DNA from: Escherichia coli
Lineage (GTDB): Bacteria > Pseudomonadota > Gammaproteobacteria > Enterobacterales > Enterobacteriaceae
Length of the DNA: 64,000 nucleotides
Assembly (NCBI RefSeq): GCF_050320075.1
Contig: NZ_CP190018.1
Strand: one strand, 5' to 3'
In this document: positions 3,459-31,310 of the stretch, in pieces
Position numbering within the stretch: position 1 is the first letter of the stretch
How the letters are laid out: each line of letters begins with the position of its first letter
Program-made: the position numbers and the translations under genes
Notes under the pieces: model-generated
Database searches by the model: none
Told to the model about the DNA's origin: nothing
Seen by the model: the letters and a program-made list of their open reading frames with translations, nothing else

Positions 3459-3664
3459 AAAAAAAAGCACCGCAATTAGGCGGTGCTACATTAATCACTA
3501 TGGACAGACAGGGTAAATGTACAGGAAGTGAAAAAAGGTAGCTTTGCTACCATGGTCTGAATCGCAGACCAATTGCAAACACAACAACACAACATCACAA
3601 CCGTAAGCCAAAAGTTCACCAGAACACGCATTCCGATAAAACTTTTCGTTCCGGCTCAGGAAGT
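3459..3664 (-). ncRNA. gcvB: GcvB small regulatory RNA (Hfq-dependent, represses amino-acid and peptide transporters)
   Basis: Reverse complement begins ACTTCCTGAGCCGGAACGAAAAG and ends in hairpin GCACCGCCTAATTGCGGTGC plus T8; GU-rich stretch GTTGTGATGTTGTGTTGTTGTGTTTGC present; divergent from gcvA. Confidence 0.9.
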
Positions 3665-3792
3665 GCCGCCACTATAGGTATTTGCTGGTAGAAGCTCAAC
3701 GGACAATTTATAATGGCTCAGATTAAAAAAACTAATAGGTTACACAGTGTGATCTAATTGTTAAATTCATTTAACATCAAAGTTTAAAAGCC
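3665..3792. promoter_or_regulatory. divergent gcvB / gcvA promoter region
   Basis: 128-bp AT-rich interval between the gcvB 5' end and the gcvA start; location only, sites not mapped. Confidence 0.5.
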
Positions 3793-26972: not shown

Positions 26973-28313
26973 ATGAGTTCTCAATTTACGACGCCTGTTG
27001 TTACTGAAATGCAGGTCATCCCGGTGGCGGGTCATGACAGTATGCTGATGAATCTGAGTGGTGCACATGCACCGTTCTTCACGCGTAATATTGTGATTAT
27101 CAAAGATAATTCCGGTCACACTGGCGTAGGGGAAATTCCCGGCGGCGAGAAAATCCGTAAAACGCTGGAAGATGCGATTCCGCTGGTGGTGGGTAAAACG
27201 CTGGGTGAATACAAAAACGTTCTGACGCTGGTACGTAATACATTTGCCGATCGTGATGCCGGCGGGCGCGGTTTGCAGACATTTGACCTGCGGACCACTA
27301 TTCATGTGGTTACCGGGATAGAAGCGGCAATGCTGGATCTGCTGGGGCAGCATCTGGGGGTTAACGTGGCATCCCTGCTGGGCGATGGTCAACAGCGTAG
27401 CGAAGTCGAAATGCTCGGTTATCTGTTCTTCGTCGGTAATCGCAAAGCCACACCGCTGCCGTATCAAAGCCAGCCGGATGATAAATGTGACTGGTATCGC
27501 CTGCGTCACGAAGAAGCGATGACGCCGGATGCGGTGGTGCGCCTGGCGGAAGCGGCGTATGAAAAATATGGCTTCAACGATTTCAAACTGAAAGGCGGTG
27601 TACTGGCCGGGGAAGAAGAAGCCGAGTCTATTGTGGCACTGGCGAAACGTTTCCCGCAGGCGCGTATTACGCTCGATCCTAACGGTGCCTGGTCGCTGAA
27701 CGAAGCGATTAAAATTGGTAAATACCTGAAAGGGTCGCTGGCTTATGCAGAAGATCCGTGTGGTGCGGAGCAAGGTTTCTCCGGGCGTGAAGTGATGGCG
27801 GAGTTCCGTCGCGCGACTGGCCTGCCGACCGCAACCAATATGATCGCCACCGACTGGCGGCAGATGGGCCATACGCTCTCGTTACAATCCGTTGATATCC
27901 CGCTGGCGGATCCGCATTTCTGGACGATGCAAGGTTCGGTACGTGTGGCGCAAATGTGCCATGAATTTGGGCTGACCTGGGGTTCACACTCTAACAACCA
28001 CTTCGATATTTCCCTGGCGATGTTTACCCATGTAGCCGCTGCTGCACCGGGTAAAATTACTGCTATTGATACGCACTGGATCTGGCAGGAAGGCAATCAG
28101 CGTCTGACCAAAGAACCGTTTGAGATCAAAGGCGGGCTGGTACAGGTGCCGCAAAAACCAGGATTGGGCGTAGAAATCGATATGGATCAGGTGATGAAAG
28201 CCCACGAGCTGTATCAGAAACATGGGCTTGGTGCGCGTGACGATGCGATGGGAATGCAGTACCTGATTCCTGGCTGGACGTTTGATAACAAGCGCCCGTG
28301 CATGGTGCGTTAA
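26973..28313 (+). CDS. gudD: D-glucarate dehydratase
   Basis: ORF 26949..28313; start placed at [13 protein letters not shown] giving 446 aa. Confidence 0.92.
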
Positions 28314-28385
28314 GACAGAAAACCAAAACCGGCTTCATAAGAAGTCGGTTTGAGATTACTGACGAAGTGGTTTACGGGGCCGGTT

Positions 28386-28490
28386 TTCCCCCTCGCCCTT
28401 TCAGGGAGAGGGGCGGGGTGAGGGTAATCATTCGCACTTGCGTTGGCCTGTTCCCCTCACCCTAACCCTCTCCCCGGAGGGGCGAGGGGA
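28386..28490. repeat. GC-rich composite palindromic element between convergent gudD and barA
   Basis: Two inverted units of about 40 bp (28386-28427 and 28451-28490), each rich in CCCTC/GAGGG runs and mutually complementary; family not assigned. Confidence 0.5.
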
Positions 28491-28553
28491 CTGTCTGTGC
28501 TGCTCCCAGCATTGGCATTGGACGGAACCTATTTTGACTCGACAAGACGTCCA

Positions 28554-31310
28554 TTACCCGAGAATTTTGCTGGCTTCGCGCGCGACATTATCCATCTCGT
28601 CCAACAGTTCCAGCAGCTCCGGCTCCAAATCTTCTTCTTTAGTACCGCTACGTAGCTGTTGTTCGATCAGCTGGCAGAGATTCTTCATACGCGGCACACC
28701 GCTATAGCCGCAACTGCCATGCAGTTTATGAATCAAATCAACCAGGCCTTCCGGGTTTTCTCCAACCAGCTGTTCCTCAACTTTGTTGCGAACTTCAGGC
28801 AGGAAATCGAGTAACATTTGCAGCATATCGCGCGCTAAATCGGTTTTTCCTGCTGCCTGGCGTAGTGCCAGTTGCCAGTCGAGGGTCGCATTCGGGTTCA
28901 CCACAATTTCGTTGACTTCGGGCGTCACGACGCGAGACGAAATACCGCTGCCAGGCTTGTAGCGCAACAACAAATTATGCAATCGCTCTTCTTCAATCGG
29001 TTTCGCCAGATAATCGCTCATCCCTGCGCCAAGCAGCTTCTCTTTTTGCCCGGCCATTGCATGCGCCGTTACCGCGATAACTGGCGTTTGTTGCTGATGG
29101 GGGAGCTGGTGGATGAGTTCGCAGGCCCGAATGCCGTCCATGTCCGGCATTTGAATATCCATTAAGATCAAATCGAACGGCATCTGTTTCGCCCGTTCAA
29201 CCGCCTGATGCCCGCTATCGCAAAGTTCCACATGTTGCACCATATCTTCCAGCAATGCGCCGATAAGTTTCAGGTTAGCGGGGTTGTCATCAACCGCCAT
29301 GACTGTCATTGCCAGCTTACTTTCATCGGTTACAGGCAAAAGCGTGTTTTGTTTGTGATGACAAAATTCCGTCAGGGCAGGTAACAGGCGCGTAGGTGTT
29401 AATGGTTTCAGCAGACACGCGCCGATACCATCTTGCTTAAGTTTTTCAGCATTGACTTGTGCATGGCAAGGAAGTGCCAGCATCAGAAAATCGGTCATCG
29501 ATACCGCTTTCGCTAATCGCTCATGTTGCATTGTTAGCGGCTCGCGGAAGGTCACCGCAATGCCTAATAACATCATGTCGTAATGCGCGGGAGGCAGCGC
29601 GGAGAACGTTGGGCTATAAACCACTTCCAGCGGCGTTTCACTTAAAATATCCAGCGTGCATTGCGCTGCTGCGGAGTTTGGTTCGACATAGGCCAGGCGC
29701 TTGCCGGCTAGGCACTGGGTGGATGGCCCTTCGATAATAATGTTCGGGTTCAGATCGAGATTAATGTGGAACCAGAAAGTTGAACCGCGATTCGGCTGGC
29801 TATGGAACGAAATATCGCCGCCCATTTCATTAACCAGTTTTTGTGTAATCACCAGCCCCAGCCCGGTGCCACCATGACGGCGGGAAATACTGGCATCAGC
29901 CTGTCGGAAGGCCTGGAATAAGCGCGATTGATCGCGTTCAGGAATACCAATGCCGGTATCCCGAATCTGCACTTCAATCTGCACTTTGGTATTACTCAGC
30001 GCACGTTTTTCTACCAGAATATCAATGTTGCCATTCTCGGTGAATTTAATTGCATTCCCTACCAGGTTAGTGATGATTTGCTGTAATCGCAGTGGGTCGC
30101 CAATTACGTTATCGGGCACGTCGCTCTTAATATTGAGCGTCAGTTCCAGCCCTTTATCGTGAGAAGAATGTGCCAGCAGGGTAACGACTTCATCCAGCGT
30201 GCTGCGTAGTGGGAATGGAATACTTTCCAGAATCAGCTTACCTGCTTCCAGTTTCGAGAAGTCGAGAACATCATTAATAATTGCCAGCAAATTATTTGCC
30301 GAACGTTCAATCGTATTCAGGTGATCGCGCTGCGTTGGTGTTAATTCTGTTTTCAGCGTCAGGCGAGTAAAGCCAATAACACCATTCAGTGGTGTACGCA
30401 GCTCGTGTGACATATTTGCCAGAAACTCGGATTTAATACGCGCCGCTTCCTGGGCACGCTTTTTCGCCAGATCCAACTCAACGTTCTGAATTTCCATCTG
30501 CTCCAGCGTTTCACGCAGATCGGACGTCGCCTGGTCGATATTGTGCTGCATCTCTTCGTGATAAGCAGCCAGCGACATTGCCATCGAGTTGATACCGTTT
30601 TTCAGCATATCCAGCTCGCCGAGCATAAATCCTTCCACCCGGCTGTCGAGTTGCCCGCGACGGATGCGGTCGACGGTATTCACCATGTTGCGAATCGGAC
30701 CGGTTACATCGCGCATTAAGCGCCAGCCAAAAATAAGCGCAATACCGATACAAAACAGCATCATCACGCTGGAAATAAAGATCTCTTTATATTGCTGCAA
30801 GCGAACCGATTTAAGATCCAGCTCAAGCGCAATATATCCCAACATATTTTGACTATTTTTGGCATCGCTACTGGGCGATTCGTCGGGGGAGTAACTCTCA
30901 GAAATAATCGGCGTGCGGAGGATCATAATATCGCCGTCACGAGTGACAGTGAGCTGGCGAGGAAACGGCACGTTGCTGCCGAGCTGCATTGATGAGGGAT
31001 CAAGATGAAAATTGGAGGTGACAAAGAGTCGGTTATTTTCATCATAAACCGAAATCGCGCGAACAATATCGGAATGGCGACGATGCAGTACGCTTATTAA
31101 CTGACCGATAGATTCGCGATTTTGCAGGCTCATGCCATATTCAGTAGAAACTGCAAGCGGCTCAATAATGCTGGCTCCGGCATCTTCCAGTTGACGCTGC
31201 AAGTCGTTATAGCGATGCACAACGAAAAAGATACTCAGCAATAAACCAATAAGGACGGTCGGTGCCAGGATCAGAATCATCATGCGTGCGCGCAGGCTGT
31301 AGTTGGTCAT
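28554..31310 (-). CDS. barA: hybrid sensor histidine kinase BarA (BarA/UvrY two-component system)
   Basis: 918-aa ORF with TM, HAMP, HisKA (H-box SHELRTPLN), HATPase, receiver and HPt regions; recognised as BarA. Confidence 0.93.

Follow-up and report, generated by a model that had tools for sequence, protein, structure and literature searches.

A GC-rich palindrome in the gudD–barA spacer of Escherichia coli corresponds to an inverted pair of BoxC repeats

The spacer between the convergent genes gudD and barA contains, in the 64-kb window of Escherichia coli DNA analysed here (64,000 nucleotides), a GC-rich palindromic segment, and the question raised by this locus is what kind of element the palindrome represents and whether it serves the genes beside it. 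A preliminary description had proposed that a hairpin directly after gudD and two mutually inverted units of about 40 bp form one composite, that together they fold into a long, very stable structure, and that they belong to an intergenic repeat family rather than being a simple terminator. The upstream gene, gudD (glucarate dehydratase), occupies positions 26973–28313 on the + strand, its start being inferred from the 1341-nt K-12 gene and its ORF ending with the TAA stop at 28311–28313, and the downstream gene, barA (sensor histidine kinase), is a 918-aa ORF at 28554–31310 on the − strand. Several complete E. coli chromosomes are 100% identical over the flanks and the spacer, and both genes take their RefSeq names from there; the C-terminus of BarA is also 97% identical to that of BarA at a locus of a related Escherichia (L012, tblastn). 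The gudD stop and the end of barA at 28554 therefore delimit a spacer of 240 bp (28314–28553). Two small ORFs overlapping the element (28298–28465 and 28438–28707) were dismissed as mechanical ORFs in the repeat, and a promoter and terminator consensus scan of 28200–28700 returned zero calls.

The two inverted GC-rich units are present, and all described features lie within 1–4 nt of where they had been placed; a repeat search returned inverted arms of 39 nt at 28389–28427 and 28451–28489, which are 82% complementary and 23 nt apart. A literature search gave the family a name, or rather three, since BoxC (Bergler, 1992), PIT (Hoyne & Maher, 2000, 2002) and TMECO (Holder et al., 2015; PMC4666352) are one family. 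Its members are GC-rich, occur scattered through E. coli and other Proteobacteria and lie strictly between genes. A unit is built from a C-rich 9-mer and, behind it, two G-rich 9-mers; the consensus is 5'-CCCTCNCCC-N3-6-GGGNGAGGG-N3-GGGNGAGGG-[G/T/C/-], and 23 K-12 units are tabulated (Holder et al., 2015; PMC4666352). In the whole window, the strict consensus has only two exact matches, at 28390–28424 (+) and 28454–28488 (−), with 0.00 expected from shuffled sequences, and the pair lies entirely within the 240-bp spacer, that is, in a strictly intergenic location. These results show that the palindrome is an inverted, tail-to-tail pair of BoxC (PIT, TMECO) repeats. The proposal of an intergenic repeat family instead of a simple terminator was thus borne out, as BoxC is a dispersed, multi-copy family and both units match its published consensus exactly. 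The family has been known since 1992, and E. coli is its best-known host species.

In a permissive Rfam search of 27800–29000, no family reached its gathering threshold, the best being MIR1846 with 37.1 bits against a threshold of 77.5; the sub-threshold matches to plant and animal miRNA precursors and one weak match to STnc350 were rejected as generic long GC hairpins, and a reading of the element as an sRNA is without Rfam support. For annotation, the result assigns a GC-rich palindrome to a catalogued family and is a caution not to label it a terminator, sRNA or microRNA-like hairpin. In the accessible portion of the supplementary text of Holder et al. (2015; PMC4666352), we found neither barA nor gudD nor the sequence of unit 1, the main text of PMC12844172 does not mention boxC, and a literature search found no later functional work on BoxC beyond Holder et al. 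(2015; PMC4666352) and the catalogue of Petrillo (2008).

As defined for the family, the units span 36 nt each, at 28390–28425 (+) and 28453–28488 (−), with 27 nt between them. Unit 1 is type-B-like, CCCTCGCCC-TTTCA-GGGAGAGGG-GCG-GGGTGAGGG-T, and its sequence (CCCTCGCCCTTTCAGGGAGAGGGGCGGGGTGAGGGT) differs by 1 nt from K-12 TMECO no. 10 ('B mm'), having GCG for CCG in loop 2, which is neither of the published types (CCG, TTA) and counts somewhat against the assignment. Unit 2, on the − strand, is of type 'A mm', with one stem mismatch, CCCTCGCCC-CTCCG-GGGAGAGGG-TTA-GGGTGAGGG-G, and is identical to K-12 TMECO no. 23 (CCCTCGCCCCTCCGGGGAGAGGGTTAGGGTGAGGGG). All five inverted pairs of K-12 combine an A unit with a B unit (Holder et al.; PMC4666352), and the pair described here does so in a B-like form, loop 2 of unit 2 being TTA and that of unit 1 being one substitution from CCG. 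In the sister allele of genome HCP5S3_I2, loop 2 of unit 1 is CCG, and G-block 1 is degraded to GGAGAGGA, which places its unit 1 outside the strict pattern.

Alignment of the window element with four K-12 pairs (ygfF–gcvP, alx–sstT, fepB–entC and hrpB–mrcB) revealed homology beyond the 36-nt motifs, covering the left edge (CGGTTTTC), the spacer between the units and the tail behind the A unit (GACTGnCTGAGC…TTGTCAT; GACTGnCTG). What is repeated is therefore a composite about 120–150 bp long, consisting of edge, B-like unit, 27-nt spacer, A unit and tail, and is larger than the two units of about 40 bp to which it had been confined; the original BoxC was defined as 56 bp, a unit plus its tail. 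The conserved left edge (28381–28389, +), CGGTTTTCC, is common to the ygfF–gcvP, alx–sstT and hrpB–mrcB pairs. The 27-nt spacer at 28426–28452 (+), AATCATTCGCACTTGCGTTGGCCTGTT, is conserved among BoxC pairs, measuring 27 nt in ygfF–gcvP and alx–sstT and 26 nt in fepB–entC, with a similar sequence (TAAnnnTTCGCACCnGTGCTGGCCTGTTC) in all three. On the right, a diverged tail, ACTGTCTGTGC...TTGGCATTGGAC (28489–28530, +, the right limit being approximate), corresponds to the family tail GACTGnCTGAGC...TTGTCATC found behind A-type units. Thus, the element resembles the known family in its exact consensus, its C/G/G three-block build, its intergenic, multi-copy, chromosomal occurrence, its pairing of an A with a B-like unit and the homology of spacer and tail. 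The composite, with its B-like unit on the + strand and its A unit on the − strand, sits between the stop codon of barA and the gudD-side hairpin.

A copy count showed that the element is multi-copy rather than single-copy, the 116-bp BoxC element matching 5,418 of the 5,426 complete E. coli genomes. The median genome has 17 such places, and the genomes listed as matching the window at 100% have 12–20. Nearly all of these places (83,480/83,518) are chromosomal, a dispersed distribution independent of plasmids, phages and transposons. The three phage matches are all short, the one inspected being an UNVERIFIED 'Campylobacter phage' record that carries E. coli BoxC and REP DNA, and a second UNVERIFIED record of this type gave the same kind of match; an association with phages was rejected, the inspected match being contamination by E. 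coli DNA. An association with E. coli plasmids was likewise rejected, since the record inspected is a mislabelled chromosome fragment and several others are multi-megabase.

The gudD–barA locus is not among the 23 units of MG1655, and at this site the pair is absent from K-12. The allele-specific segment of the window (about 28357–28537) could not be aligned to the remaining E. coli sampled, K-12 and O157:H7 among them, which have REP/BIME sequences there, and 189 of the 5,426 E. coli genomes (3.5%) carry its right flank, each at one place. All six non-carriers sampled have a BIME in the spacer. In K-12, the spacer measures 231 bp, nearly the same length as the 240 bp of the BoxC allele, and its BIME is made of one canonical REP (GCCGGATGCGGCGTTAACGCCTTATCCGGCCTAC) and one degenerate REP; the K-12 counterpart segment occurs in at least 40 places in every genome, as expected for REP, and the window spacer lacks the REP core palindrome GCCGGATGCGGCG...CGCCTTATCCGGCCTAC that the K-12 allele contains. 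The gudD–barA site is therefore dimorphic, with a BIME in the sampled non-carriers and a BoxC pair in a minority of genomes.

REP/BIME and the BoxC pair thus share this spacer, depending on the strain, and both are GC-rich, palindromic and intergenic, have the stop of barA on one side and the far hairpin on the other and, as families, frequently occur at the 3' ends of convergent genes, but they have no sequence similarity, REP being defined by the core GCCGGATGCGGCG and present in hundreds of copies per genome. REP also has a mobilizing transposase, RAYT, and gyrase, IHF and Pol I as protein partners, while we know of neither a mobilizing transposase nor protein partners for BoxC.

The BoxC allele has sub-variants, among them that of HCP5S3_I2, which combines the degraded unit 1 with a K-12-like hairpin. 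In genome CFSAN018748, both units and their spacer are gone through a clean 110-bp deletion between 6-bp GGGGAC direct repeats, TTAC[GGGGAC…GCGA]GGGGACTGTCTG, and the 44-mer across the deletion junction is unique to this one genome. As CFSAN018748 retains the family tail, its allele arose by deletion and does not represent an empty site. The deletion is a signature of hairpin-stimulated slippage and fits the 'instability' and 'palindrome effect' of Holder et al. (PMC4666352); coming from a single genome, it could also be an assembly collapse across the hairpin. No convincing target-site duplication or empty site was found among the 5,426 E. coli genomes. Two candidates for a target-site duplication were rejected, TTTGA at both borders as probably due to chance and GGGGAC as internal to the BoxC family. 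The locus is mostly stable, since 161 of the 189 carriers are at least 99% identical to the 78-nt query from the right flank. As a separate observation, the gudD side of the locus is 5.5% divergent from K-12 and the barA side 1.2%; the excess of SNPs in gudD was also seen in comparison with other BIME strains and is therefore not tied to BoxC.

The hairpin after gudD is real and lies at 28326–28351, one base away from the 28325–28350 of the preliminary description. It is of the terminator type, AAACCGGCTTC-ATAA-GAAGTCGGTTT, with 11 pairs including one G·T; its RNA fold reaches −15.6 kcal/mol (z −5.2) on the + strand and −15.4 kcal/mol, with one A·C mismatch, on the − strand. It is present in all aligned spacers (K-12, O157:H7 and four other strains), with changes in the loop and at the stem ends. 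Of the single composite that had been proposed, the inverted units hold as a repeat and the hairpin does not, because it is retained, with its loop changed, in the REP/BIME allele that lacks BoxC and so is not part of BoxC. On the + strand, the hairpin is followed only by a weak U-tract (UUUGAGAUU), while the − strand has a better one (UUUUGGUUUUCU), so that the intrinsic terminator pattern of a stem-loop followed by a U-tract is partly present on the − strand; the consensus scan made no call. With its A-rich 5' side and T-rich 3' side, the hairpin resembles the intrinsic bidirectional terminators of convergent genes, and the BoxC pair itself, having no U-tracts, differs from intrinsic terminators. 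We consider the hairpin a probable bidirectional terminator, which, judging from its U-tracts, would act mainly for barA in the reverse orientation and be weak at best for gudD. The better U-tract on the barA strand would place the BoxC pair inside the barA 3' UTR. A similar geometry exists at the L012 locus, where a BIME lies between two identical 22-nt hairpins, the gudD-side one after A6 and the barA-side one before T8. If these acted as strand-specific terminators on the far sides, each of the convergent transcripts would cross the BIME before ending, a geometry that supports the location of the BoxC pair within the barA 3' UTR.

The long, very stable structure attributed to the element was recovered by folding. 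As RNA, positions 28381–28497 reach −78.8 kcal/mol (z −7.8) on the + strand and −70.7 kcal/mol (z −6.2) on the − strand, and as DNA −35 kcal/mol (z −5.8); the entire 240-bp spacer folds at −124.8 kcal/mol (z −7.8), and hairpins of single units at −10 to −26 kcal/mol, in a nearest-neighbour model with Watson–Crick and wobble pairs only. For K-12 sequences, CD, NMR and Tm values of 70–82 °C showed that the G-rich strand, when isolated, folds into a hairpin to which the third block binds, giving a very stable intrastrand triplex of the purine motif (PMC4666352). The triplex strand halts DNA polymerase in vitro, but duplex DNA gave no triplex signal and DMS in vivo revealed no protection (PMC4666352). 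According to Hoyne & Maher (2002), as cited in PMC4666352, PIT elements acted neither as promoters nor as terminators, and replication, transcription and conjugation were unaffected in vivo. Among 56 strains, TMECO loci vary more than control spacers, with partial deletions at palindromic pairs (PMC4666352).

On this basis, the BoxC pair would be a structure-prone, essentially non-regulatory and largely neutral repeat, gained and lost through recombination and slippage, probably without a dedicated transposase. It would have landed in a permissive spacer between convergent genes, replacing the REP/BIME found in the sampled E. coli without BoxC. The pair is most likely transcribed in the barA 3' UTR, where an imperfect stem of about 39 bp is predicted, and its main consequence at the DNA level would be local instability, with hairpin-stimulated deletion between short direct repeats. 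Taken jointly, the identity as a BoxC pair and the largely neutral, non-regulatory mechanism that we infer for it are very probably the best explanation of the element.

The chief rival to a neutral repeat is a functional RNA module, in which the stem-loop in the barA 3' UTR (and in gudD read-through transcripts) is under selection, blocking 3'-to-5' exonucleases or serving as an RNase III target, and can be exchanged for a BIME; we regard this as possible, though unlikely. It would account for the great stability of the stem on both strands (−78.8 and −70.7 kcal/mol), for the position of the pair between the barA stop and a hairpin with a U-tract on the barA strand, and for the nearly equal spacer lengths of the BoxC and BIME alleles (240 and 231 bp). 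REP elements are reportedly, since work by Newbury et al. in 1987, established stabilizers of mRNA 3' ends.

A GudD-based scan of other taxa, with one genome per species, bears on the same point. In this sample, most other genera of Enterobacteriaceae have a glycerate-kinase gene between gudD and barA, and E. coli was the only species with BoxC in a gudD–barA spacer. In the spacer on the side of the barA stop, REP-like palindromes were found in Citrobacter, Enterobacter asburiae, Pseudescherichia and others, a single BoxC unit, of differing orientation and type, in Leclercia, Enterobacter sp. ENT03, E. cloacae and Pseudocitrobacter, and possible degenerate remnants of BoxC in Pluralibacter and Enterobacter sp. 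BIGb0383. A barA-proximal BoxC was thus present in 4 of the 17 sampled Enterobacteriaceae loci that include the barA end, plus a fifth on a contig ending before barA, a rate that, by informal comparison, suggests an excess over the expectation from copy numbers per genome and so counts against a purely neutral repeat. Altogether, 12 of 17 inspected barA-proximal spacers across genera hold a REP-like element or BoxC, and two more hold possible BoxC remnants, which speaks for the RNA module. The same spacers also weaken it, as the orientation and type of the barA-proximal BoxC vary between genera. Further evidence against selection on the RNA is that one strain, CFSAN018748, has lost the whole pair, that the commonest unit type has a stem mismatch (PMC4666352) and that PIT had no effect on RNA polymerase, termination or promoter activity (Hoyne & Maher, 2002, as cited in PMC4666352). 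Covariation in the stem between the units lends it no help either, five or six homologous pairs being too few and the units being conserved anyway.

A related proposal, namely that the barA-proximal spacer is under selection as a 'slot' in which BIME and BoxC serve interchangeably as structured elements of the 3' UTR, seems doubtful to us. If it were true, BoxC would have an RNA-level function equivalent to that of REP, and the trio of BoxC, BIME and 110-bp-deletion alleles would be the first direct handle on its function after 30 years without one. Independently of the slot, two unrelated families, BIME and BoxC, alternate at one convergent spacer, both within a species and between genera, and this alternation, together with the natural deletion, provides an allelic series next to barA, a gene involved in control of the Csr system, for tests at the RNA or the DNA level.

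Improbable, too, is an element acting at the DNA level, for which Holder et al. speculated that an intrastrand triplex or a cruciform formed in vivo pauses replication and causes adaptive local mutagenesis or recombination. The triplex of the isolated strand, the polymerase stops in vitro and the raised variability of TMECO loci (PMC4666352) all agree with such an activity, as do the dimorphism of the site with its one deletion derivative and the unequal divergence from K-12 (5.5% on the gudD side versus 1.2% on the barA side). However, duplex DNA gave no triplex signal and there was no protection from DMS in vivo (PMC4666352), PIT had no in vivo effect on replication (as cited in PMC4666352), right flanks at 99% or more in 161 of 189 carriers indicate a mostly stable locus, and the SNP excess in gudD is also seen against BIME-bearing strains, so that it cannot be tied to BoxC.

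The composite could also be viewed as a MITE, with imperfect terminal inverted repeats of 39 nt and mobilized in trans by a transposase, a reading prompted by its build from inverted repeats, its copies scattered between genes, its presence in some genomes and absence from others, and its wide range, which includes Alphaproteobacteria. Like the MITE-like repeats ERIC/IRU, Correia/NEMIS and RUP, BoxC is small, non-coding, dispersed, built on inverted repeats and co-transcribed with its neighbours, but it differs from them in showing no convincing target-site duplication, no related IS transposase, more single units than pairs and no similarity to ERIC. Single units without an inverted partner occur at 13 of 18 K-12 loci, and a cognate transposase is not known (PMC4666352). 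In addition, the copies are not on plasmids or phages, and no clean empty site or target-site duplication was found in the 5,426 genomes, the sole 'empty' genome retaining the family tail. With neither of these found, no known transposase and single units predominating, this reading is very unlikely.

That the long hairpin of the BoxC pair is itself a bidirectional intrinsic terminator of gudD and barA, as its extremely stable stem between convergent genes might imply, is extremely improbable, since no T-run or U-tract follows the stem on either strand, the consensus scan of 28200–28700 was empty, PIT did not act as a terminator in reporter assays (cited in PMC4666352), and a separate hairpin with a U-tract exists and is conserved in alleles without BoxC.

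The reading as a largely neutral BoxC pair is challenged by data from outside the enterobacteria. In the plasmid collection, megaplasmids of Azospirillum, Sinorhizobium and Rhizobium carry genuine BoxC-like matches, in line with the broad taxonomic range described by Holder et al. (PMC4666352). The very strong conservation of the units across such distant taxa is hard to square with pure neutrality and may point to selection or to some unrecognized means of spread. An Azospirillum copy has the same B(+)/A(−) pair, with units that are about 90% identical and an unrelated spacer of 37 nt.

In the E. coli genomes sampled as non-carriers, namely K-12, O157:H7 and four further E. coli, the place of the BoxC pair of the gudD–barA spacer (units at 28390-28425 on the plus strand and 28453-28488 on the minus strand) was occupied by REP/BIME, an unrelated palindromic repeat family. 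The K-12 counterpart of window positions 28314-28553 lies at 1315-1545 of L001 (NC_000913.3 2916500-2919500), with the REP core GCCGGATGCGGCGTTAACGCCTTATCCGGCCTAC at 1389-1422, and the two spacers are nearly equal in length, 231 bp with REP/BIME in K-12 as compared with 240 bp with BoxC in the window. The BoxC allele was present at this site in only 189 of 5,426 E. coli genomes. When the flanking genes were compared with those of K-12, the 3' end of gudD presented 36 differences in 657 nt (5.5 %, window 27700-28356), while that of barA presented 7 in 563 nt (1.2 %, window 28538-29100). This asymmetry in sequence divergence suggests that a recombination boundary may lie near the gudD–barA spacer, or that gudD may be generally highly diverse.

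In most other genera the gene convergent with barA at this spacer encodes a glycerate kinase, and single BoxC units were observed between the two genes in Leclercia, two Enterobacter species and Pseudocitrobacter, and Pluralibacter retains a possible degenerate BoxC remnant. These barA-proximal units and remnants (L021 3646-3680, L022 3653-3685, L033 3626-3660, L048 ~3632-3730, L020 ~3637-3657 and L028 near 3590, in local coordinates of each locus) include units that differ in orientation and type among the genera. In Citrobacter, E. asburiae and Pseudescherichia, REP-like palindromes occupy the same spacer. Repeats appear to have landed more than once in the barA-proximal spacer.

In Escherichia strain SCPM-O-B-8794 (L012), two identical 22-nt hairpins, AACGGCTCCTTACAGAGCCGTT, are located one on each side of the gudD–barA BIME, at 2413-2434 (left) and 2588-2609 (right). 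A run of A6 precedes the left copy and T8 follows the right one, an arrangement implying that the hairpins are putative strand-specific terminators and that the repeat would be crossed by both convergent transcripts. In the window, the hairpin next to gudD has a left arm, AAAACCGGCTTCATAA (28325-28340), that shows 81 % complementarity with TTACGGGGCCGGTTTT (28372-28387), the left edge of the BoxC composite. The minimum free energy fold of the minus strand showed the two in an alternative pairing, which is probably coincidental because the CGGTTTTC edge is conserved across the BoxC family.

A natural deletion was found in E. coli CFSAN018748 (NZ_CP028192.1; site at L095 254-285), where a clean loss of 110 bp, corresponding to window 28376-28485, has removed the two BoxC units together with the spacer that separates them; the BoxC tail was retained. 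The deletion is bounded by 6-bp direct repeats (GGGGAC), and its junction was observed in this genome and no other among the 5,426, reflecting either hairpin-stimulated slippage or assembly collapse.

Database records attributed to phages and plasmids also contained BoxC. In MG065686.1 ('Campylobacter phage A18a', UNVERIFIED), an E. coli-type unit is followed by a canonical REP (L093 300-415). The match is almost certainly E. coli contamination of the assembly rather than phage-borne BoxC; the related record MG065691.1 gave the same kind of match. Several E. coli 'plasmids' from PLSDB, NZ_OL790696.1, NZ_CP141089.1 and NZ_CP134663.1 (4.8-4.9 Mb) and NZ_MG591698.1 (L094), were likewise rejected as plasmid-borne cases, being chromosomes or chromosome pieces misfiled as plasmids, as exemplified by the presence of alx–sstT on NZ_MG591698.1.

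Plasmid p2 of Azospirillum brasilense (NZ_CP032341.1) carries a BoxC pair between two ABC-transporter genes (L092 151-267), arranged B(+)/A(−) as in the window. Its units are ~90 % identical to those of the window, while the 37-nt spacer is unrelated, and 19-21 such places were found on the replicon. The conservation of BoxC across Alpha- and Gammaproteobacteria is striking.
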